Shown: positions 3,001-63,653 of the stretch, in pieces
Numbering within the stretch: position 1 is the first letter of the stretch
How the letters are laid out: the number at the start of each line of letters is the position of its first letter
Assembly: GCA_903959905.1 (NCBI GenBank)
Contig: CAJBYO010000029.1
Location: 169,518 to 233,517 of the forward strand
Origin: an uncultured Bacteroidales bacterium
Lineage (GTDB): Bacteria > Bacteroidota > Bacteroidia > Bacteroidales > FEN-979
DNA: 64,000 bases
Reading direction: 5' to 3'
Position numbers and translations under genes: made by a program
Notes under the pieces: generated by a model
Database searches by the model: none
What the model saw: the letters and a program-made list of their open reading frames with translations, nothing else
What the model was told of the DNA's origin: nothing

Positions 3001-6000
3001 CCCCCTATTGACCCCGATCCCTATTTGATCGTGAGTGTGGCGATATCCGCATCATCCAACCCGGTTTGTCAGGGGATGCCGGTGACGTATGCAGCTACTG
3101 CGGTAAACGGGGGAATTACGCCTTTTTACGAATGGTTTGTAAACGGCATCAGTTCCCAGAACGGAATTAATCCGGCCTTTATTTATACCCCTGCCAACTA
3201 CGACATTATAACGTGCGTTATGACTTCGGATGAAACCTGCACCATAGGAAATCCTGCCACTTCCAATTCCGTGTCAATGCTGGTTGCGAACCCCCAGGTG
3301 GAAGCCACCACCTCAGGCACGCGTTGCGGATATGGTTCTGTAACGCTTTCCGCCTTCGGATCGCCCGGAGCAACGCTCACATGGTACGCAACTCCTATCG
3401 GGGGAACTGTACTGGGAACCGGCTCCATCTTCGATACACCGGCAATCGCGGTAACCACAACCTTTTATGTTAGTGCTGCTTATGCCGGTTGCGAATCATC
3501 ACGTGTACCCACAGTTGCCTTCGTTACTCCTGCTGACGCGATTTATGCGACTGCAACCCCGTCTGTGATCTGTGCAGGGCAAAGTAGTGTTCTGAATGTA
3601 ACCCAGTCAGGTTCTAATAACAGTTATACATATACCTGGACCGACGGAACTGCCTGCATTAATGGACAATCCGTCAGTGTAACGCCACAGGCAACCACCA
3701 TGTATACGGTGACAGGAACCGACGGTAGTTGTGTCGCCACAGCTTCGGTAGTGGTTACGGTCAATCCAACGCTGATTGTCAGCGTATACATCTCGGCTTC
3801 AGCCAACCCGGTGATGGCCGGCACCCCGGTGACCTTAATGGCCACAGTGGTGCCTGTAGGATTAAACTCGTCTTACCAATGGATGAAGAATGGAATTAGT
3901 ATCTCCGGAGCCACCACTGTCAATTACACCTATGTCCCGGAGAACAATGACATGCTTGCCTGTATGATTACTTTCACTGAGAACTGTGTAAGCGGTAACC
4001 CCGTTGTGTCCAATACGGTTACTATGACAGTACTGCCTGCAATGACCTTGTCATTTAACATGGTCCCGGAATGCACCTATAATTTCATTTCAGTCAGTGT
4101 AGCCGGTGGAAATCCGCCATACCAATATACATGGAGCAATGGGGCAACAACTTATTACCAGTACCTGACAGCAGGAACCTATACAGTATCGGTGACGGAT
4201 GCCAATAACGTCACAGTCGCCAGCCCCTGTACTGTTGTTACCCTGGATTGTGATTTCGGAGATGCCAAAGAACCTTTGTATCATACCTATCATGGAAGTA
4301 ACGGTCCGCGCCATGCCATATCAGGATTAAAGCTCGGGATGTTCATTGATACGGAAACCGATGGTCAGCAATCTTTATTTGCCGACGGTGACGACACAAA
4401 TGGTACAATTCCGGATGACGAAGATGGCATTAATGGCCCTGGGTCAGGTGCCTTTACCCAGGTCAGCACCGGCACGAACATGCTTTTATTTACAACCTAT
4501 AACAATTTGAGCCAGACGGCATACCTGCAGGGTTGGATTGATTTTGACGGGGACGGCATAATGGATCCCGGAGAACAGATTATAACAAACCAACCGATCC
4601 CACAGGGGCCTTTCAGCGGCAACATAGTTTTTACCGTGCCCCCCTTATCAAATCCGCTGTTTTCCATTGCCAGGTTCAGGCTGAGTACGACGTATAACCT
4701 GTCATTTACAGGATTGGCCCCGGACGGCGAGGTGGAAGATTATTATATTTATATTGACAACGTCCCGACACCAACCCTGGATTACGGTGATGCACCCGAC
4801 AACGGCAACTTTCAGTATAATACACTGAACGTGAATGATGGTGCCCGCCATTTCAGCGATTGTCATGTAAGGCTAGGCACATTGACTGATGCCGAACCGG
4901 ATGGGCTGCAAACAATCATGGCCAACGGTGACGGGAGTGATGAGGATGGGGTGGTCTTTCCATCCTCCTTCTCTGCAACCAACAACATCATCACGATTTA
5001 TCCGCATAACGACCTGTTGAACGGTACGGTATATCTGAACGGATGGATGGACTTCAACCAGGATGGAATCTGGGGAAATTCTCCGAATGAACATTTCCTG
5101 GTTGAATATCAGATCCCATACAGTGGTGCCACCTGCTGTTATGATCCGCTTCACCCGGGATGGCTTTTAAACGTACCAGTCCCCCTGCCTTTAATGGCCA
5201 GCGGCTGCATGTACGCCCGGTTCAGGATCAGCGACACCCCCGGTGTGGGACCATCGCAGCCGTCAGGAATTCCCGTAACGATAGGGGAGGTTGAAGATTA
5301 CAGGGTTTGTCTTAATTCCTGTCCTGCTGCCTGTGAAAGCTTTGATGACGGCACCAGCAATTTCATGACCAGCAACGACGGTGCGGTCAGTAATGGCAAC
5401 CTTGTTATTACAACCCCCGGATCTGGTGGATATACTGGCGACAAAGGATTAAAAGTGACAGATATTTCCGGTTCCACATGGATTTACAACAATTCCACGG
5501 ATTATAGCGGGAATTACCTGTTATGTGATAACAATTGTCTTTGCTGGGATATCAACATGCTTGAAAATGATCAGAGTTATTATCCCAGTATATTTATTTT
5601 CCGGGGATTTAATACATCTCTGCCTGTTGGCCCATCCAATCCGCAGTATATGGCACGGTTCACGTCTTCCTCCCTGATCGGTCTGGATAGGTGGGCACAT
5701 ACGTGTGCAAGGATTCAGCCCTCTGCAGGGAATGATCCGCCATTAAGCCAGGAAGGAACATGGACCTGGAATAATTACCCGGGATCTAATCCCCCGGACT
5801 GGAATAACTTTATAAGCGACATCGGCGGAATCATGTTCCGGGTTGATGTTACAGGATGGGGGGGGGCGGAATCTTTCATCCTTGACAGCATCTGCCTGAG
5901 CCCCTGTGTGACTGATACGGTTACACTGACCGTAAATTCCCTGCCTTGTTCCAATGTCAATATTAATGCGACACCCATGGACATTCATGGAAACGGTTCC

Positions 6001-11914: not shown

Positions 11915-11916
11915 CC

Positions 11917-12000
11917 GTCACCCGTCACCTGTCACGCGTCACGCGTCACGCGTCACCTTTCACGCGTCACTTGTCACTTGTCACTTTGGTCCCGTCATCT
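11917..12000. repeat. 7-bp tandem array, GTCAnnn family (about 10 units plus 2 degenerate)
   Basis: Units read gtcaccc gtcacct gtcacgc x3 gtcacct ttcacgc gtcactt x3. The array starts 3 nt after the GT39 stop and fills the convergent spacer. Its degenerate end overlaps the last codons of fumC. Confidence 0.9.
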
Positions 12001-19451: not shown

Positions 19452-20582
19452 ATGAAGAAACTTGCAGCATTTTTATTCATCTGTTCTGTGCTGGCATCAT
19501 GTGTGAACAGTAAAGACCAGTTTAAATTATCAGGGAGTGTTAAGGGCATTGATACCGGGATGGTTTTCTTGCAGAAATATAACGAGGAAGGGTGGGTAAC
19601 TGCCGATTCTGCCAAACTGAACAAAGGGGAATTTGCCTTCACCGGCAAGGTTGACTTCCCTGAAATGTGGCATGTTACCATGTTTGACGGACAGGTATTG
19701 GTACCGGTTTTTATGGAAAATGCAAAAATTGATCTTCAGATTTTTCCTGACAGCCTTGATAAATCAGTTGTAAAAGGATCTGCCACACACGACTTTTACC
19801 AGTCATACCTGGCATCCATTGCGCCAATCAACACAAAGCAGGAAGAGGCATACCTGGAATATAAAAAGGCAAGGGAATCAGGCGATACGCTGGGAATGGA
19901 GCATAATGATTCCATCATCACAGCACTTGACGGAGAACTTAAAAACCAGCTAACCACTTTTGCAAAAACAAACAATAAAACAGTTGTTTCGCCCTATCTT
20001 ATCATGCGGGAGAGCTGGCAGTATGAACTTCCTGAACTGGAGGAAATCAGCAGCGTGATGGATACCAGCCTGAACCGTTCACAATACCTGGCAGCCTTAA
20101 AGAAACGGGTTGAAATCCTGAAGAGTGTGGAAGTCGGACAAATGGCACCCGATTTTACCATGAACGACACCACCGGAAAACCAATCACCCTCTCATCATT
20201 GAAGGGGAAAATCCTGCTTGTTGATTTCTGGGCATCATGGTGCGGCCCCTGTCGCGGAGAAAATCCCAATGTAGTAAAAGCCTACCAGGCTTACAATAAA
20301 AAGGGGTTTGACATACTTGGCTGTTCGTTTGATAAAAGCCACGAAAAATGGCTTGCAGCCATTGCGGAAGATCACCTGACCTGGACCCATGTCTCTGATT
20401 TAAAATACTGGGGCAATTCCGCCGGGAAACTTTACGGTGTCAAATCAATCCCAGCCAATGTGCTTCTTGACAAAGATCAGAAAATTATCGGCCGCAACCT
20501 GCGCGGTGAAGACCTGATGAAAAAACTGGAGGAAGTGCTGGGGCCGGCAACGCCCGTCAAGAAGGTTGGGAAAAGGAAATAA
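19452..20582 (+). CDS. TlpA-family thiol:disulfide oxidoreductase lipoprotein (DUF4369-like N-domain plus thioredoxin fold)
   Basis: Start moved to MKKLAAFLFICSVLASC (lipobox). Thioredoxin-fold active site FWASWCGPCRGENP. Confidence 0.78.
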   Translation: MKKLAAFLFICSVLASCVNSKDQFKLSGSVKGIDTGMVFLQKYNEEGWVTADSAKLNKGEFAFTGKVDFPEMWHVTMFDGQVLVPVFMENAKIDLQIFPDSLDKSVVKGSATHDFYQSYLASIAPINTKQEEAYLEYKKARESGDTLGMEHNDSIITALDGELKNQLTTFAKTNNKTVVSPYLIMRESWQYELPELEEISSVMDTSLNRSQYLAALKKRVEILKSVEVGQMAPDFTMNDTTGKPITLSSLKGKILLVDFWASWCGPCRGENPNVVKAYQAYNKKGFDILGCSFDKSHEKWLAAIAEDHLTWTHVSDLKYWGNSAGKLYGVKSIPANVLLDKDQKIIGRNLRGEDLMKKLEEVLGPATPVKKVGKRK

Positions 20583-20687
20583 TGATGGAATGCAAACAAT
20601 GCAGGCAATGCAAACAATGAATGCAATGTAAACAATGAATGCAATGTAAACAATGCAGACAATGCAGGCAATGCAAACAATGAATGA
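20581..20687. repeat. 9-bp tandem array, AATGnAnnn family (11-12 units), forward arm of an inverted pair
   Basis: Units read aatgcaaac aatgcaggc aatgcaaac aatgaatgc aatgtaaac aatgaatgc aatgtaaac aatgcagac aatgcaggc aatgcaaac aatgaatga. The first unit overlaps the TAA stop (20580-82) of the TlpA gene. Confidence 0.9.
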
Positions 20688-20852
20688 AATATTAACTGAT
20701 TGACCGCAATCATACCTGTCAAGTTACTTTTAATCTTTAATGACGGTGTTATATCTAAATCTAACTGCCAGATTTTCAAAATAAATAATAAAACCACGAA
20801 GGCGATGAAGGACATACGAAGGCGCCAAAGATGTCTCACATTATAATTAAAC

Positions 20853-20892
20853 TCTTTGTGCGACTTTGTGTGGACTTTGTGCGACTTTGTGG
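20853..20892. repeat. 10/11-bp tandem repeat CTTTGTG(C/TG)GA x4 inside the inverted-array pair
   Basis: Sequence ctttgtgcga ctttgtgtgga ctttgtgcga ctttgtgg. Confidence 0.8.
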
Positions 20893-21024
20893 TTATAACA
20901 TTGACATACAATTCTTTACTGCCAGATAAATGGTGTTCAGTAACGGTTGCTGGTACGATTCCGATCAATCAAAAATATTATAAGCAAATAACATTTATCA
21001 TCATGACATTTACTATATTCCTTA

Positions 21025-21072
21025 CATTGTTTACATTGCCTGCATTGCATTCATTAATTACATTGTTTGCAT
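21025..21072. repeat. 9-bp tandem array, reverse complement of the 20581-20687 family (5-6 units), reverse arm
   Basis: Units read cattgttta cattgcctg cattgcatt cattaatta cattgtttg cat. Their reverse complements are the words aatgtaaac and aatgcaggc of the left arm. Confidence 0.85.
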
Positions 21073-21096: not shown

Positions 21097-22458
21097 ATGA
21101 GCAGATACCTGATTGTGTTTTTCTTCCTGGCAAGCACTGTTGCCGGGGCACAAAATACCATAGAGGGAAACATCAGCGGGTTTGACGGGAAGATGATTTA
21201 CCTGGCAAGCATCTACGGTGAAAAAATTAAGACCATTGACTCCGCATCACCGGATGGCAGCGGTAATTTCAGGTTTCTGATCAGCAATCGCCTTCCCGGG
21301 ATGTACCGTGTGAAATGGGAAAAGGATGGCTGGGTTGACCTGATCTGGAACCAGGAGAATGTAAAATTCACCACCTCATCCCAATTTCCTGACGACAGTC
21401 TCAGGATAATTTCCTCTGTTGAAAATGCAATCAACCAGGCTTATTTAAGGCTTGACCGGCTCAACCAGGCAAAGTTGCAGGTGCTTATCCCGGTTGTTGA
21501 TTTTTACCCTGTGAAGGATGCTTTTTTCAGCGCTGCCGCCATGGAAATGGAGAATATTCAGATGAAACAGCAGAAGTACCTGGACTCCCTCGCTGCGATT
21601 TACCCCAGGTCTTTTGCCGTGCGCATGGCAAAAGTTTACCAGGCACCGTTTATCACGGCCTCTCTGCTCAAGGAAGACCGTGTGCTGTTCTTAAAGCAGC
21701 ACTACTTTGACCGTGTCGACTTCTCTGATACCTCCCTTCTGAGGAGCATGGTATTTGTGAACAAGGCCATTGCCTATCTGTCAATATACAGCAATAACAG
21801 GCTCCCGCAGAAGCAGCTTGAGGCGGAATTCATCAAGGCGGTTACCCTGATGCTTGGTGCAGCTTCTGTCAACCCGGTGATCTACAAGTTCTGGCTTGAT
21901 TACCTGGTGGGAGGGTTTGATAAATACCATTTTGACGAGGTGATCACCTATATCGCCGATAATTTCCAGGATCCTTCATCGTGTGAGGACCAGGAGCGAA
22001 AGTCGTCACTGCAGAAAAAACTTGACACCTTTAAAAAGCTTGCCATCGGGAAAGTGGCCCCCGACCTTGAAGTGCCAGATCTTAAAAGAAAACCATTTAA
22101 ACTTTCATCAATAAACGCCGAATATACCCTGGTGGTTTTTTACGCAACCACATGCCCGCATTGCATGACGATGGCTCCCCGGCTGAAGGAACTTTACGAA
22201 AAGCAGCAGCCGAAAAAGTACGAGGTGATGTTCGTGTCGATTGATACCAGTTTTGCCGATTGGAGTTCCTTTATCAGGGATACGAAGCTGAAATGGATCA
22301 ATGTGTCAGACCTGAAAGGGTTTAACGGGAAATCGGCAGATGATTACAACATCTATGCAACCCCCACCATGTTTTTGCTTGACAGGGAGAAGAAGATCCT
22401 GGCAAAGCCCATTTCACTGATGGAGCTGGAACAGGCGCTCAGGGATTATAACCTGTAG
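21097..22458 (+). CDS. Thioredoxin-fold (TlpA/AhpC-like) secreted protein with large N-terminal domain
   Basis: Start moved to MSRYLIVFFFLASTVAGAQN (signal peptide). C-terminal thioredoxin fold with VVFYATTCPHCMTMAP (CxxC). Confidence 0.65.
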   Translation: MSRYLIVFFFLASTVAGAQNTIEGNISGFDGKMIYLASIYGEKIKTIDSASPDGSGNFRFLISNRLPGMYRVKWEKDGWVDLIWNQENVKFTTSSQFPDDSLRIISSVENAINQAYLRLDRLNQAKLQVLIPVVDFYPVKDAFFSAAAMEMENIQMKQQKYLDSLAAIYPRSFAVRMAKVYQAPFITASLLKEDRVLFLKQHYFDRVDFSDTSLLRSMVFVNKAIAYLSIYSNNRLPQKQLEAEFIKAVTLMLGAASVNPVIYKFWLDYLVGGFDKYHFDEVITYIADNFQDPSSCEDQERKSSLQKKLDTFKKLAIGKVAPDLEVPDLKRKPFKLSSINAEYTLVVFYATTCPHCMTMAPRLKELYEKQQPKKYEVMFVSIDTSFADWSSFIRDTKLKWINVSDLKGFNGKSADDYNIYATPTMFLLDREKKILAKPISLMELEQALRDYNL

Positions 22459-22590
22459 GCGATTTACGATTGGACGATTTACGATTTCAGATTAAATTTA
22501 TTGATTAACGATCTACGATTAGCGTTGCTTAATCGTAAATCGTCAATCCTGCAATTCATTCGTCATTCGTCATTCGTCCAATCGTAAATC
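22459..22590. repeat. GATT-word array with nested inverted repeats plus TTCGTCA x3, filling a convergent spacer
   Basis: gacgatttacgatt (22474-87) pairs with aatcgtaaatcgtc (22531-44). gatttacgattgga (22462-75) pairs with tccaatcgtaaatc (22577-90). ttcgtca x3 lies at about 22556-22577. The array starts on the base after the TAG at 22456-58. Confidence 0.85.
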
Positions 22591-33997: not shown

Positions 33998-34140
33998 AAA
34001 TTTCTCGCAGATTTTCGCAGATTTTTCACGCAGATTTGAGCAGATTTTTTATCTTCCTGAAAACAAGAAATTCCCTTAATAAATCATTTTTTTTCTGCGA
34101 AAATCTGCGTGAAAAATCTGCGAAAATCTGCGAGAAATTT
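33998..34140. repeat. Perfect 38-bp inverted repeat built from about 11-bp TCGCAGATTTT units, 67-nt spacer
   Basis: Left arm 33998-34035 is aaatttctcgcagattttcgcagatttttcacgcagat. Right arm 34103-34140 is its exact reverse complement. The left arm starts on the base after the sprA TAA (33995-97). Confidence 0.9.
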
Positions 34141-42598: not shown

Positions 42599-42609
42599 GC
42601 GCCTGATTC

Positions 42610-42728
42610 GTCACTCGTCATTTGTCATTCGTCATTCGTCATTCGTCACCCGTCACCTGTCACCCGTCACCCGTCACCTGTCACCTGTCACCCGTCACGC
42701 GTCACCCGTCACGCGTCACGCCTCATCC
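42610..42728. repeat. 7-bp tandem array GTCAnnn (17 units), grading from GTCATTC into GTCACCC/GTCACGC
   Basis: Units read gtcactc gtcattt gtcattc x3 gtcaccc gtcacct gtcaccc x2 gtcacct x2 gtcaccc gtcacgc gtcaccc gtcacgc x2 ctcatcc. The array lies between convergent ltaE and thiL and contains the thiL stop and its last 4 codons. Confidence 0.92.
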
Positions 42729-43782
42729 CATCCCATCCCTGTGCCGTGATCGGAACCGCCTTCCCATCCGGAGTGATCATATACTTACCCTCTGCCGCTG
42801 CAGTCATATGTCCGATAATGCTGATGCCTGCAATATCTTTTATTTTTTCGTAGTCATCCTGCTTCACGGTGAAAAGCAGTTCATAATCCTCGCCGCCGCT
42901 CAAGGCAGCAACGCTGGGAATGATCTTGTACTCCTTGGCAACTTCGCGCGTATGGGCATCCATGGGGATTTTTCCTTCAAAGAGTTTGCACCCGACTCCC
43001 GAATGTTTGCAGATATGCAGGATCTCGGAGGCAAGCCCGTCGGAAATATCGATCATGGAAGTTGGTCTGACCCCGATGCCGATCAGCAGGTTTCTTACGT
43101 CGGTGCGGGCTTCGGGCCGCAGCTGACGGCCAACCTGGTAATCAAAACCGGTTAATTCGGGCTGCATGTTCGGATCAACCTGGAATACTGACTTTTCGCG
43201 TTCCAGCACCAACAGTCCAATATAGGCGCTACCCAGGTCGCCGGTCACACAAAGAAGGTCGCCCGGCCTGGCCCCGCTTCGGTAAGTAACATCCTCTTTG
43301 TTCGCAATGCCGGTTACTGTGACGGAGATCATAAGGCCTTTCACATTTGAACTGGTGTCGCCACCAACCAGGTCAACTTTATATTTATCGCATGCCATGA
43401 TGATGCCGGCATAGAGTTCATCAAGCGCTTCGGCAGAAAACCTGCTGGAAACGGCCAGGGAGACGGTCATCTGCATGGGAATGCCGTTCATGGCGGCAAT
43501 ATCAGAGATGTTGACCACTGCAGCCTTGTACCCGAGATGTTTGAAAGGCATGTAGGTAAGGTCAAAATGGATCCCTTCAACCAGCAAGTCTGTTGACATC
43601 AGCATGACCTTGTCTCCCAGATCAAACACAGCGGCGTCATCACCAATGCCTTTAAGGGTTTCTGGATGATAGTGCTTTACGTTCTTTGTAAGCCTGTCAA
43701 TCAGCCCAAATTCGCCCAGTTCAGAAAGTGAGGTAAGTTTCGGAGCGGTGGGGGCTGTTTTTTTATTTTTATTTTCGTACAT
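42709..43782 (-). CDS. thiL: Thiamine-monophosphate kinase
   Basis: GEFGLIDRL...GIGDDAAVF and an AIR-synthase-like fold (GGDTS, GGEDYELLFT). Start moved to MYENKNKK at 43782, because the upstream 34 codons of the ORF are tandem-repeat sequence. Confidence 0.88.
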   Translation of the reverse strand: MYENKNKKTAPTAPKLTSLSELGEFGLIDRLTKNVKHYHPETLKGIGDDAAVFDLGDKVMLMSTDLLVEGIHFDLTYMPFKHLGYKAAVVNISDIAAMNGIPMQMTVSLAVSSRFSAEALDELYAGIIMACDKYKVDLVGGDTSSNVKGLMISVTVTGIANKEDVTYRSGARPGDLLCVTGDLGSAYIGLLVLEREKSVFQVDPNMQPELTGFDYQVGRQLRPEARTDVRNLLIGIGVRPTSMIDISDGLASEILHICKHSGVGCKLFEGKIPMDAHTREVAKEYKIIPSVAALSGGEDYELLFTVKQDDYEKIKDIAGISIIGHMTAAAEGKYMITPDGKAVPITAQGWDGMRRDA

Positions 43783-43799
43783 GAGGCTGCGTAGTAATT

Positions 43800-43869
43800 T
43801 GAAACTTGAGACTTGAAATTTGAGATTTGAGATTTGAGATTTGAGATTTGAGATTTGAGATTTGAGAAT
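43800..43869. repeat. 7-bp tandem array TGAGATT (10 units, 6 consecutive perfect)
   Basis: Units read tgaaact tgagact tgaaatt (tgagatt)x6 tgagaat. The array begins 17 nt upstream of the thiL ATG, counted on the minus strand. Confidence 0.92.
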
Positions 43870-44053
43870 TGTGTCCACCTGCAAAATTACGATTAATTTA
43901 GAATATGCCTTAGCAGCGATTCCAGTCCCATTCAGCTGCTACGAGGCCGTAACTTATTGTTTTTATGAATCCCGCGGAAGCCTAAATATCGACAAACCCG
44001 GTTTCATTCTGAAATTAACAGGGTGAGATAAGCTGAATTATGAGTATTTTTGA

Positions 44054-50039: not shown

Positions 50040-50046
50040 CGATCTT

Positions 50047-50142
50047 GTCCACCAGTCCGCCAGTCTGCCAGTCCGCCTGTCCGCTTGTCCGCCTGTCCGC
50101 TTGTCCGCCTGTCCGCTTGTCCGCTCACCCGCTCACCCATCC
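50047..50142. repeat. 8-bp tandem array GTCCGCnn (12 units)
   Basis: Units read gtccacca gtccgcca gtctgcca (gtccgcct gtccgctt)x3 gtccgctc acccgctc acccatcc. The array lies upstream of the sufB promoter. Confidence 0.92.
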
Positions 50143-58695: not shown

Positions 58696-58790
58696 GGGTC
58701 CGGCAGTTTTTTAGGAGTTTTACGTGACCATAAAACTACGAATAAATTTGACAGTCCACCCCTGATTTTTCACCATTCCATCGATTTCCC

Positions 58791-58902
58791 GTCACCCGTC
58801 ACGCGTCACCCGTCACCCGTCACGCGTCACGCGTCACCCGTCACCTGTCACCTGTCACGCGTCACGCGTCACCCGTCACGCGTCACGCGTCACCCGTCAC
58901 CA
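58791..58902. repeat. 7-bp tandem array GTCAnnn (16 units)
   Basis: Units read gtcaccc gtcacgc gtcaccc x2 gtcacgc x2 gtcaccc gtcacct x2 gtcacgc x2 gtcaccc gtcacgc x2 gtcaccc gtcacca. The array ends 8 nt before the sufS -7 box. Confidence 0.92.
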
Positions 58903-61848: not shown

Positions 61849-61918
61849 GGAATATCTGTTAAAATCTGTAAGTATCTCTAAAAACGGTTTATTTCTTTTT
61901 CACAATCCTGCTTCTCTG

Positions 61919-61990
61919 CATTCTTTTCATTGCCTGCATTGCCTTCATTGCCTGCATTGCTTGCATTGTTTGCATTGTCAGCATTGTCTT
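61919..61990. repeat. 9-bp tandem array CATTGnnnn (8 units), reverse-complement orientation of the AATGnAnnn family
   Basis: Units read cattctttt cattgcctg cattgcctt cattgcctg cattgcttg cattgtttg cattgtcag cattgtctt. The array lies between the padR stop and the pspC-domain gene start, and its last unit reaches the padR stop codon. Confidence 0.9.
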
Positions 61991-62319
61991 CATCCTTTCC
62001 CGATAATCTTCTCCACCGAACCGATCAGATCCTGCCAGTCAGCCTTGAGGCCAGCCAGGGCTTGCAGCCCGGTCTCGGTTATCTGGTGGTACTTTCTTGG
62101 CGGGCCTGATTTTGATTCCTCCCAGCGATAGGCCGTCAGCCCGTCGTTTTTCAGCCTTGTCAGCAAAGGGTACAAAGTTCCTTCAACAACAATGAGTCTG
62201 GCTTCCTTTAACCTTGAAATGATGTCGGAAGCGTATGCGTCCTGCTCAGCGATGATGGCCAGGATACAGAGTTCAAGGACTCCTTTTCGCATCTGTGCGT
62301 TTTGGTTTTCTGTATTCAT
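61990..62319 (-). CDS. PadR family transcriptional regulator
   Basis: Winged-helix PadR pattern: LELCILAII...DAYASDIISRL......VVEGTLYPLLTRLKNDGL..YRWEES..GPPRKYHQITETG. Confidence 0.88.
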   Translation of the reverse strand: MNTENQNAQMRKGVLELCILAIIAEQDAYASDIISRLKEARLIVVEGTLYPLLTRLKNDGLTAYRWEESKSGPPRKYHQITETGLQALAGLKADWQDLIGSVEKIIGKG

Positions 62320-62323
62320 GCGG

Positions 62324-62331
62324 CAAAGATA
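62324..62331 (-). promoter_or_regulatory. -7 box (TAnnTTTG) for padR, implying a leaderless or near-leaderless mRNA
   Basis: The minus strand reads tatctttg and ends 4 nt before the padR ATG (62319). Confidence 0.4.
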
Positions 62332-62339
62332 ATATAAAA

Positions 62340-62365
62340 CATGGTACTATGCAATACATGGTACT
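62340..62365 (-). promoter_or_regulatory. Candidate PadR operator: two CATGGTACT 9-mers 17 bp apart within an imperfect 21-bp palindrome
   Basis: catggtact occurs at 62340-48 and 62357-65. GTACTATGCAATACATGGTAC (62344-64) is self-complementary at 16 of 21 positions. The site lies between the -7 box and the expected -33 position of padR. Confidence 0.35.
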
Positions 62366-62390
62366 AAAAATTATGAAATATTAACAAATG

Positions 62391-62558
62391 GCGGACGAGT
62401 GGACGAGTGGACGAGCGGACTGGCGGACAAGCGGACAAGTGGACAGGCGGACGAGCGGACGAACGGACAAGCGGATAAGCAGACGGGCGGATAGGTGGAT
62501 GAGTGGACAAGTGGACAAGTGGACAAGTGGACAAGTGGACAAGTGGACAAGTGGACAA
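62391..62558. repeat. 8-bp tandem array G(C/T)GGACnn (21 units, last 7 perfect GTGGACAA), reverse complement of the GTCCGCnn family
   Basis: Hand-phased units from gcggacga (62391) to gtggacaa x7 (62503-62558). This is the left arm of an inverted pair with 63080-63191. Confidence 0.92.
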
Positions 62559-62674
62559 GTGGACAAGGGAAGTGATACTAAGTTATTGGGAGGCCAGAGA
62601 AAGTGAAAATGTTGATAACTTTTTCAGATTTGCATATTACCTTTTTACGTTTTTTGGATTAAGCAGGAAAAATC

Positions 62675-63055
62675 ATGAAGACTCATAAAGATTTAGAAGT
62701 TTGGAAACTTAGCATGACTCTGGTAAAGGATGTTTATCATTTGACCTGCAATTTCCCTAAAACTGAAATATTTGGACTGACAAGTCAAATTCGAAGGGCT
62801 GCTGTATCTGTTCCAGCGAATATAACAGAAGGTTCAGCACGAATGAGTTCAAAAGAGCTCAGGTATTTTCTCAGGATATCATTCGCAAGCCTGGCTGAAC
62901 TGGAAACATTGATAACCCTTTCAAGAGACCTTGAATTTCTTTCTATTCAGGATTATAATATCCTTCACCCTAAAATAAAGATGATTACCTGTCAATTAAG
63001 TAGCTTAATACGATCCATAAACGATAAAATTCAACAAAATGAAACTAAGGATTAG
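62675..63055 (+). CDS. Four-helix-bundle protein (TIGR02436 / 23S rRNA-intervening-sequence protein family)
   Basis: HKDLEVWKLSMTLVKDVYHLTCNFPKTEIFGLTSQIRRAAVSVPANITEG..R.S.KE...FL.I..AS..ELET is the characteristic pattern of this family. The gene looks visibly more AT-rich than its neighbours. Confidence 0.78.
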   Translation: MKTHKDLEVWKLSMTLVKDVYHLTCNFPKTEIFGLTSQIRRAAVSVPANITEGSARMSSKELRYFLRISFASLAELETLITLSRDLEFLSIQDYNILHPKIKMITCQLSSLIRSINDKIQQNETKD

Positions 63056-63079
63056 CTTCAAATATACCCATCTCTACCC

Positions 63080-63191
63080 GTCCGCCCGTTCACTCGTCCG
63101 CATGTCCACTCGTCCACTTGTCCGCTCGTCCGCTCGTCCGCTTGTCCCCTTGTCCTCCCGTCCGCCCGTCCGCCTGTCCACCTGTCCGCCA
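63080..63191. repeat. 8-bp tandem array GTCCnCnn (14 units), right arm of the inverted pair
   Basis: Units read gtccgccc gttcactc gtccgcat gtccactc gtccactt gtccgctc x2 gtccgctt gtcccctt gtcctccc gtccgccc gtccgcct gtccacct gtccgcca. The array ends 7 nt before the sufE -7 box. Confidence 0.9.
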
Positions 63192-63198
63192 TTTTCCC

Positions 63199-63206
63199 TA
63201 CCTTTG
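63199..63206 (+). promoter_or_regulatory. -7 box (TAnnTTTG) upstream of sufE
   Basis: tacctttg lies 22 nt upstream of the ATG at 63228. Confidence 0.5.
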
Positions 63207-63227
63207 CCCCCCAAACCCCCCTCACCC

Positions 63228-63653
63228 ATGACCATCAACGAAACCGAAGCCCAGATCATCAGCGAATTTGCCATGTTTGATGACTGGATGGATAAATATA
63301 ATTACCTGATTGAACTTGGAAAGTCATTGCAGATCATTTCCGAGGAATACCGTACCGACCAGTACCTGATCACAGGGTGCCAGTCAAAGGTTTGGCTTCA
63401 CGCTTCTTTAACCGAAGGAAAAGTTGTGTTCACGGGCGACAGCGACGCCATCATCACCAAAGGCATTGTGAGCCTGCTGATTCGCGTTCTTTCCGGTCAG
63501 ACACCTGACGACATCCTCCGGGCCAAACTGGAATTCGTTGATCAGATAGGATTGCAGGAGCATCTTTCTCCGACACGCAGCAACGGGCTTTCTTCCATGA
63601 TCAAACAGATGAAGTTGTATGCGACGGTGTTTAAGATGACGAGGGAGAAGTGA
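63228..63653 (+). CDS. sufE: SufE-family sulfur acceptor protein
   Basis: MTINETEAQIISEFAMFDDWMDKYNYLIELGK, active-site context ITGCQSKVWL, LSPTRSNGLSSM. Start moved from 63039, because the first 63 codons of that ORF are tandem-array sequence. Confidence 0.85.
   Translation: MTINETEAQIISEFAMFDDWMDKYNYLIELGKSLQIISEEYRTDQYLITGCQSKVWLHASLTEGKVVFTGDSDAIITKGIVSLLIRVLSGQTPDDILRAKLEFVDQIGLQEHLSPTRSNGLSSMIKQMKLYATVFKMTREK

Follow-up and report, generated by a model that had tools for sequence, protein, structure and literature searches.

Probable composite of a tandem-repeat hairpin and a nested miniature inverted-repeat element between two TlpA-like genes of an uncultured Bacteroidales bacterium

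Layout of the TlpA spacer

Within a 64-kb stretch of DNA from an uncultured Bacteroidales bacterium (contig CAJBYO010000029.1; this whole stretch is referred to below as the window), two TlpA-like genes are separated by a spacer of 514 bp, with a GC content of 31-37% compared with 45-49% for the neighbouring genes. A preliminary description of the sequence had recognised inverted 9-mer arrays in the spacer between these two TlpA-like genes, enclosing an AT-rich interior without a credible open reading frame (ORF). These observations hold: array units were located at 20589-20687 and 21017-21072 by Tandem Repeats Finder (TRF) and repeat search, the Pfam domains of both flanking genes support their assignment, the GC figures are as given above, and stop codons close six of the six reading frames of the interior. 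Most probably, two unrelated non-coding repeat elements are combined at the locus, a tandem-repeat hairpin and, nested within it, a miniature inverted-repeat transposable element (MITE) bounded by terminal inverted repeats (TIRs), situated in the spacer of an ancestrally tight TlpA gene pair. The features of the locus are as follows, with the basis of each in brackets.

19452-20582, + strand: upstream TlpA-like gene, DUF4369 plus AhpC/TSA/Redoxin (Pfam scan, ORF list, sequence)
20589-20687, + strand: left arm, 11 units of AATGnAnnC with the variants AATGCAAAC, AATGCAGGC, AATGAATGC and AATGTAAAC (TRF, repeat-family search)
20687-20694, unstranded: left copy of the putative 8-bp target-site duplication AAATATTA, sharing the last base of the left array (sequence, family flank test)
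20695-20972, unstranded: MITE, 21-bp TIR cores plus 2-3 further terminal bases, no ORF (metagenome scan, family ends, alignment with the related element L064)
20792-20894, + strand: central MITE hairpin of inverted ~10-mer arrays (fold energy, homologous hairpin in L064)
20973-20980, unstranded: right copy of the putative target-site duplication AAATATTA (sequence, family flank test)
20981-21016, unstranded: what is left of the AT-rich loop that preceded the insertion (folding of the reconstructed 228-nt spacer)
21017-21072, + strand: right arm, ~6 units of CATTGnnnn, a set reverse-complementary to the units of the left arm (TRF, inverted-pair search)
21097-22458, + strand: downstream TlpA-like gene, DUF4369/DUF5106 plus AhpC/TSA, with an identical protein on 13 metagenome contigs (Pfam, protein search)

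The outer layer is formed by the two 9-mer arrays. TRF placed the left array at 20589-20682 (period 9, 10.4 copies, score 97, with left-array scores ranging over 97-111) and the right array at 21017-21065 (period 9, 5.4 copies, score 42), and the repeat search assigned ten in-register units of the left array to a single family together with the right array. The left array begins ~7 nt past the TAA stop codon of the upstream TlpA-like gene. The inverted arms are 58-66 nt in length and 76-79% complementary, for example at 20635-20692 against 21015-21072, with the order of units shuffled between the two arms such that there is no clean inverted duplicate.

The inner layer measures 273 bp from core to core (20698-20970), is closed in all reading frames as described above, and ends in TIR cores at 20698-20718 (GATTGACCGCAATCATACCTG) and 20950-20970 (the reverse complement of GATTGATCGGAATCGTACCAG), which are inverted 21-mers with four mismatches to each other. 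Copies of AAATATTA lie on both sides. Folding of the whole element revealed an intermediate inverted pair, 20698-20731 against 20937-20970, and a central hairpin of 103 nt composed of a ACGAAGGCG-type array at 20792-20829 and four copies of CTTTGTGCGA at 20854-20894 (3.7 copies at 20854-20891 by TRF), with a loop of ~23 nt. The entire 484 bp, outer arms included, is a nested foldback. The internal repeats listed in the preliminary description (CTTTGTGnGA, acgaaggcg and actgccagat) were all recovered by TRF and repeat search, the acgaaggcg pair being the inverted partner of the CTTTGTGCGA (CTTTGTG) array. The MITE, too, folds back on itself around a central array hairpin, and this explains both the nested symmetry of the spacer and all of these internal repeats. 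An exact 10-bp direct repeat, ACTGCCAGAT, stands on either side of the central hairpin (20764-20773 and 20918-20927) and may be either the footprint of a nested insertion or a product of chance, given that ~0.4 exact 10-mer pairs are expected by chance in 900 bp; L064 carries only loosely similar TGCCA motifs at the corresponding positions.

Distribution of the MITE family

A degenerate pattern for the element's ends, GATTGAYCGSAATCRTACCWG, was made from the two intermediate inverted sequences and run against metagenome contigs of the Joint Genome Institute (JGI); the pair form of this MITE-end motif is GATTGAYCGSAATCNTACCWG. The scan returned 31 metagenome stretches with one match each. In ~25 of the 31, sequence on one side of the motif was common and sequence on the other side was unique and AT-rich, which marks the motif as the terminus of a dispersed element with multiple copies at unrelated sites. 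Many of the contigs end inside the element. Four other GATTGAYCGSAATCRTACCWG matches were chance occurrences inside coding sequence. Within the window the TIR motif occurs once at up to four mismatches, with ~0.015 such matches expected by chance.

A search for the opposite end recovered 16 other complete elements, 14 of them non-redundant, with right ends showing 2-4 mismatches. Complete elements range from 98 to 276 bp with a mode of 271-276 bp, and short members of the family are internal-deletion derivatives where a relative has the full element (L043 compared with L059). Their flanks contain AT-rich direct repeats of 7-11 bp located 0-5 nt (mostly 1-4) outside the 21-mer cores. When true flank pairs were compared with a control of mismatched left and right flanks for 15 non-redundant elements, the window copy included, the mean longest common substring was 7.8 for true pairs and 5.7 for mismatched pairs, and a flank duplication of at least 7 bp was present in 12/15 elements as opposed to 27% of the controls. 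L064 shares with the window copy both the TIRs and the central AACCACGAAG.../CTTTGTG... array hairpin (ACGAAGGCG/CTTTGTGCGA in the window), and most other family members have GC-rich hairpin interiors instead. Matches to the MITE ends among viral contigs were chance coding matches in a phage gene, and plasmids contained nothing relevant. The family, with GATTGAYCGSAATCRTACCWG ends, a length of ~273 bp and an AT-rich duplication of 8-9 bp, appears to be undescribed, and to our knowledge its TIR sequence matches no element. The organism of sample Ga0247841 was observed to be very rich both in tandem arrays and in the MITE.

At the TlpA locus, metagenome contigs break at 20771, 20892 and 20911 (the ends of L002, L081 and L080, respectively), inside the central palindrome of the MITE, and left and right contig ends overlap by 141 nt, which is the assembler's k. 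A reading of these breaks as a sign of multiple copies was rejected, since de Bruijn breakage at an inverted repeat with k=141 explains them equally well. The MITE family breaks metagenome assemblies of these Bacteroidota and, as a practical warning, such foldbacks fragment metagenome-assembled genomes (MAGs).

The orthologous spacer in related genomes

A genome scan with the downstream TlpA protein identified 35 loci in Prolixibacteraceae/Draconibacterium-like MAGs, at 55-76% identity. The two TlpA genes were neighbours in all 33 relatives in which both genes could be located on the retrieved DNA, and in 18 of these 33 the spacer was 0-31 bp. Basal relatives and the closest relative have a spacer of 0-10 bp at this site, the 0 bp of the closest relative with gene context, P0003 (79% amino-acid identity), being taken from gene coordinates only. 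Arrays of the CAATG type were found in several relatives, starting at the stop codon and hence at exactly the site occupied in the window. Both arms are present in L008, L009, L016 and L027, with loops of ~14-30 nt, spacers of 86-129 bp and no MITE; L003 has long arrays around a different interior of ~90 bp, L005 has the left arm alone and L011 a right-arm remnant. The 9-mer unit family is the same as that of the window in L003, L005, L008, L009, L016 and L027, and the array-carrying relatives all fall within one clade of the flanking-gene tree. A one-sided GCATTCCT array occupies the site in L018 and L025, and other lineages (L012, L032-34) carry different arrays or conventional GC-rich hairpins. 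The orthologous spacer of L012 (6478-6623) contains a GC-rich double hairpin, CCCACCCCAACCCCTCCC...GGGAGGGGTTGGGGTGGG, which resembles the internal hairpins of L038-type MITEs but is without the 21-bp ends, and which suggests that the TlpA site is a hotspot for foldback DNA.

There was no sequence similar to the window's interior in any of the 35 orthologous loci, nor did the TIR motif occur at the relatives' TlpA loci, nor were there further copies of the interior within the window. A search for additional copies and a comparison of the spacer among relatives had both been proposed in the preliminary description; the former yielded none in the window or the orthologous loci, and the latter yielded short gaps of 0-31 bp, arrays lacking the interior or, in some lineages, conventional GC-rich hairpins. 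Since relatives carry arrays at the same site and none has the window's interior, the array hairpin is a resident, evolutionarily dynamic feature of the site, and the 337-bp interior is peculiar to the species of the window.

Excision of 20695-20980, comprising the MITE and one copy of the duplication, leaves a spacer of 228 nt that forms one long array stem of ~60 bp, imperfect, with an AT-rich loop of ~45-52 nt, and that folds at -62 kcal/mol on the + strand and -83 kcal/mol on the - strand. This pre-insertion architecture is that of the orthologous hairpins, from which it follows that the hairpin was already in place when the MITE entered its loop. The order of hairpin then MITE is shown, as are the anatomy of the locus, the family membership of the inner element and the absence of inversion in available assemblies. 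In the sequence of events proposed, inverted CAATGnnnn arrays would have formed just past the upstream stop codon, giving a hairpin spacer of ~228 nt, and a non-autonomous TIR transposon of 273-278 bp would then have entered its AT-rich loop, presumably moved in trans by a transposase recognising the 21-bp ends GATTGAYCGSAATCRTACCWG and duplicating ~8 bp of AT-rich target (AAATATTA). The arrays may lengthen and shorten by replication slippage, with the arms possibly kept alike by mutual exchange, and the MITE would be neutral, a passenger that adds length and further structure to the spacer.

Judging from its placement, a probable, if weakly supported, role of the outer hairpin is that of a 3'-end or intercistronic stem. 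In a read-through transcript, the outer stem could form a stem-loop that uncouples the two cistrons, whether by termination, 3' protection or RNase III processing. At 7/7 independent sites, in a small sample covering the window and 750 kb of related DNA, short-loop tandem-repeat hairpins start 0-10 nt past a stop codon in co-directional or convergent gaps, and this placement, together with the ordinary hairpins at the same TlpA site in other species, fits a 3'-end or intercistronic stem. The location of tandem-repeat hairpins at stop codons, their orthologous persistence and the conservation of their unit suggest a constrained 3'-end element of a kind undescribed for Bacteroidota.

Other features of the window

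The window contains the Bacteroidota markers Por_Secre_tail and SprA, and the genes within +/-10 kb of the spacer are PMT, fumarase, ArsC, RF, RecX, GH38, the two TlpA-like genes, a PKD/type IX secretion system (T9SS) protein, RuvA and SprA. It is rich in intergenic tandem arrays of 7-10-nt units, among which a few unit families recur: GTCACSC at 11915-11984, 42606-42739 and 58788-58901 (on the + strand at all three), TGTCCGCY at 50046-50138 and 63077-63190 (with the complement at 62393), and CAATGnnnn at 20589, 21017 and 61916, the last of these being a CATTGCCTG array at 61916-61993 that constitutes a second locus of the 9-mer family. Three further repeat-associated features are listed below.

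22460-22590: inverted CGATTTA-type heptamer hairpin between the convergent TlpA2 and PKD/T9SS genes
34000-34138: decamer arrays ATTTTCGCAG and TCTGCGAAAA, inverted to each other across a 45-nt loop, right after the sprA stop codon and upstream of gcvH
62675-63055: gene for a PF05635 four-helix-bundle protein (the 23S rRNA intervening sequence (IVS) protein, IVP), in the loop between inverted octamer arrays

The heptamer hairpin at 22460-22590 is kept in position in L004, L010, L011 and L013, with CGATTTA-type arrays at the orthologous position in L004, L007, L010, L011, L013, L021 and L026. The decamer hairpin following sprA has a fold z-score of about -9 to -10. A further array, ATTTGAG x11 at 43797-43871, lies directly upstream of what is probably the true thiL start; the longest ORF call extends through this array, and the N-terminus so annotated would be translated repeat.

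The IVP cassette of the window (62393-63190) has 22 copies of GGACAAGT upstream of the gene (62393-62567) and 12 copies of the complement downstream (63077-63190). At 12/12 further IVP loci (L060, L072-L077, L082/L083, L084 and L086/L087), ~9 of which are non-redundant given the same-site pairs L074/L075, L076/L077 and L086/L087, the gene likewise lies between inverted tandem arrays. These arrays are mostly of the same octamer family, with heptamers in L060 and a GTSAC-type unit in L084, and four or more genomic contexts are represented among the loci. The IVP gene follows a conserved leader, TTGATAACTTTTT...TTACCTTTT...GATTAARC. Between PadR and SufE (61990-63653 in the window), the cassette points the same way as SufE in the window, L074 and L075, and the same way as PadR in L072, L076 and L077; an inversion or re-insertion has therefore taken place in the course of evolution. 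Genes other than those for IVP can also lie between such arrays: at L066 (6417-7446) long inverted GTGAC/GTCAC-type heptamer arrays flank an ordinary metallophosphoesterase gene. L066 also has a GTGAC/GTCAC-unit hairpin past a stop codon at 3633-3838.

An identical 13-mer, TGAAATATTAAC(T/A), is present at 20684-20696, the inner end of the left 9-mer array, and at 62373-62385, the outer end of the left array of the IVP cassette (blastn-short E=0.006, in a small search space). The candidate of a decayed IVP gene cassette in the interior of the TlpA spacer was rejected, the best tblastn match having an E-value of 0.08 over 17 amino acids and DNA identity extending over at most a 13-mer.

In the literature searched, neither array-flanked IVP cassettes nor tandem-repeat hairpins were found described for Bacteroidota, and the same holds for recurring families of intergenic 7-9-nt units in this phylum. 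In a figure legend, the 23S rRNA IVP is listed among proteins with CRISPR-association scores (PMC10910872). It is possible, though rather doubtful, that inverted tandem-repeat hairpins are lineage-wide, IVS-like foldback modules in Prolixibacteraceae-like Bacteroidota, in which the unit families of the arms would be kept by a sequence-specific process, possibly via Avd-like PF05635 proteins, the AT-rich loops would serve as safe landing sites (for the IVP gene at 62393-63190 and for the MITE in the TlpA spacer), recombination between arms would invert the cargo, and the TlpA element would be an IVP-less member. The occurrence of IVP genes always flanked by arrays at the loci examined, with one cassette inverted between species, provides a handle on a large protein family of unknown function, and further attention is best given to the tandem-repeat hairpins and array-bounded IVP cassettes as a pattern across the lineage.

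Alternative explanations for the locus

Three readings of the segment had been put forward in the preliminary description: a foldback-type non-autonomous element, a structured small RNA locus and an invertible promoter. The first of these is correct for the inner 273 bp, as indicated by its TIRs, its flanking duplication and its dispersed family, but was misplaced in setting the boundaries at the 9-mer arrays, which are not element boundaries because related species have arrays at this site but not the interior. A version in which the whole of 20589-21072 is one foldback-type mobile element, with the 9-mer arrays as its TIRs in the manner of the Drosophila FB transposons, kinship to the array-bounded IVP cassettes and the MITE as cargo or a later insertion, is considered unlikely. 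Such an element would be in keeping with the second 9-mer locus at 61916-61993, with the patchiness of CAATG-array hairpins among close relatives, where they are mixed with spacers of 0-10 bp, and with the IVP genes, whose position between inverted arrays at all 12 further loci, in several contexts and in both orientations between SufE and PadR, indicates that array-bounded segments do get rearranged. However, no target-site duplication is recognisable outside the arrays and no transposase is associated with them, the shuffled unit order is not that of a clean inverted duplicate, the one-armed arrays of L005, L011, L018 and L025 demonstrate that arrays exist without a partner arm, and independent insertions at the same stop-codon junction in at least six species would be less parsimonious than inheritance and loss.

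Hardly any credence is given to an invertible promoter (inverton) that is now OFF for the downstream TlpA gene and is flipped via the arms, even though inverted arms do bound the segment, one TAnnTTTG box faces away from the downstream gene and the lineage's IVP cassette occurs in both orientations between the same neighbours, so that inversion is possible on evolutionary time scales. The box was reported accurately in that it is present on the minus strand at 20970-20977, where TATTTTTG is the only TAnnTTTG in the spacer, but it sits on the junction of the MITE end and the flanking duplicated target, and the promoter-like sequence appears to be an insertion-junction artefact. Five readable assemblies from different samples (the L001/L078 scaffold, L002, L079, L080 and L081) are all in the window's orientation; no recombinase gene is encoded within +/-10 kb, as had already been remarked; the arms are degenerate repeats and not defined recombination sites; and the loops of the orthologous hairpins, at 14-30 nt, are too short for a promoter. 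A structured small RNA, with the interior as a discrete transcript and the arrays as processing or termination stems, is very improbable as well. The segment folds very strongly, with whole-element z-scores of -7.4 and -8.8 on the two strands, and G-U pairs give the central hairpin an advantage of 17 kcal/mol on the sense strand (-44.7 kcal/mol on the + strand and -27.8 kcal/mol on the - strand). Strong folding is not support for a small RNA, however, because any inverted repeat folds in this way on either strand. The strand asymmetry is mixed, with the inner hairpin favouring the sense strand and the outer arms the antisense strand. An Rfam scan, one of the checks proposed in the preliminary description, gave no family for the window at gathering score or with relaxed filters (best relaxed-filter match E=1.5), and a tRNA/tmRNA search gave none. 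Neither a TAnnTTTG search nor a sigma-70 scan, the latter not designed for Bacteroidota promoters, found a sense-strand promoter motif in the spacer, and the accompanying scan for intrinsic terminators also returned nothing. Further, none of the 35 orthologous loci contains the interior, which is bounded by transposon TIRs and a flanking duplication, and the family keeps these ends while exchanging its interiors (GC-rich hairpins, deletions down to 98 bp), which is the pattern of a mobile element.

Several observations weigh against the composite of a tandem-repeat hairpin and a nested MITE, or against parts of it. The window contains a single MITE copy, and its 8-bp duplication is weak when taken alone, as 8 bp is also attained in 11% of the mismatched flank pairs. 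Neither a transposase nor an autonomous copy bearing such ends came to light in 836 kb of retrieved loci, viral contigs and plasmids, and the retrieved loci contained no TIR pairs 400-4000 bp apart. The antisense strand folds better in 4/5 orthologous hairpins, a G-U asymmetry that lends no support to an RNA role of the outer stem, and the intrinsic-terminator scan of the spacer found no canonical U-tract terminator. The patchy distribution of arrays on the tree fits repeated loss and repeated gain equally. Finally, the unit sequence AATGCAAAC/AATGCAGGC/AATGCAGAC is kept across species in which the flanking proteins share only ~75% identity. Such conservation goes beyond what slippage alone can account for, and it may point to a sequence-specific constraint, to a factor acting in trans or to exchange with arrays elsewhere in the genome.

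With two recognisable repeat layers at the locus, no switch or RNA gene is needed to account for it. The element is ordinary selfish/structural DNA, neither a switch nor a known RNA gene, and for this locus the outcome is mainly clarifying and of modest interest, in that an odd array-bounded segment separates into two recognisable layers of selfish/structural DNA.

Comparison with known repeat elements

Bacterial MITEs include Correia/NEMIS of Neisseria, Nezha of cyanobacteria, RUP and ERIC. Like these, the inner 273 bp is small and non-coding, with 21-bp TIRs, short flanking direct repeats and a foldback structure spanning the whole element, and its family has many copies, set in differing AT-rich flanks between genes, as well as derivatives with internal deletions; contigs also break within the element. 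It differs in that members share ends and size but have differing interiors, formed by GC-rich or tandem-array hairpins, and in that no autonomous insertion sequence was found in the retrieved loci.

The FB transposons of Drosophila are eukaryotic elements with long inverted termini of short tandem subrepeats and a variable middle. The arrays of the TlpA spacer have the same form, as long inverted termini of short tandem subrepeats around a variable middle, but their orthologous persistence argues for a resident structure. The IVS elements of 23S rRNA consist of a long stem with an optional small four-helix-bundle ORF (PF05635) in the loop, an arrangement matched in the window at 62675-63055, where a PF05635 gene occupies the loop formed by inverted octamer arrays. 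Unlike an IVS, that element lies outside rRNA, and the TlpA-spacer hairpin is without an IVP ORF or remnant by tblastn and blastn.

The repetitive extragenic palindromes (REP) and bacterial interspersed mosaic elements (BIME) of enterobacteria are defined palindromes of ~35 nt tied to REP-associated tyrosine transposases (RAYT). They share with the outer hairpin an intergenic position at gene 3' ends or between the cistrons of an operon, and stabilisation of transcript 3' ends or insulation is plausible for both. The stems described here are instead built from degenerate tandem 9-mers, and no RAYT turned up, although no genome-wide search for RAYT was made.

The closing comparison is with simple tandem arrays. 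The short tandemly repeated repetitive (STRR) sequences of cyanobacteria are heptamer arrays. Long simple sequence repeats (LSSR) have units of 5-11 nt (Mrazek et al. 2007, as summarised in PMC4679880). Both 9-mer arrays of the TlpA spacer are intergenic, head-to-tail arrays with units in this range that extend beyond chance length, and their unit family recurs at 61916-61993, as other unit families of the window also recur at several loci. The 7-10-nt intergenic units of the window, with few families at several loci of one genome, resemble LSSR and STRR in this respect. In contrast to those repeats, the arrays here often occur as inverted pairs, giving long hairpins right after stop codons that persist at orthologous sites.

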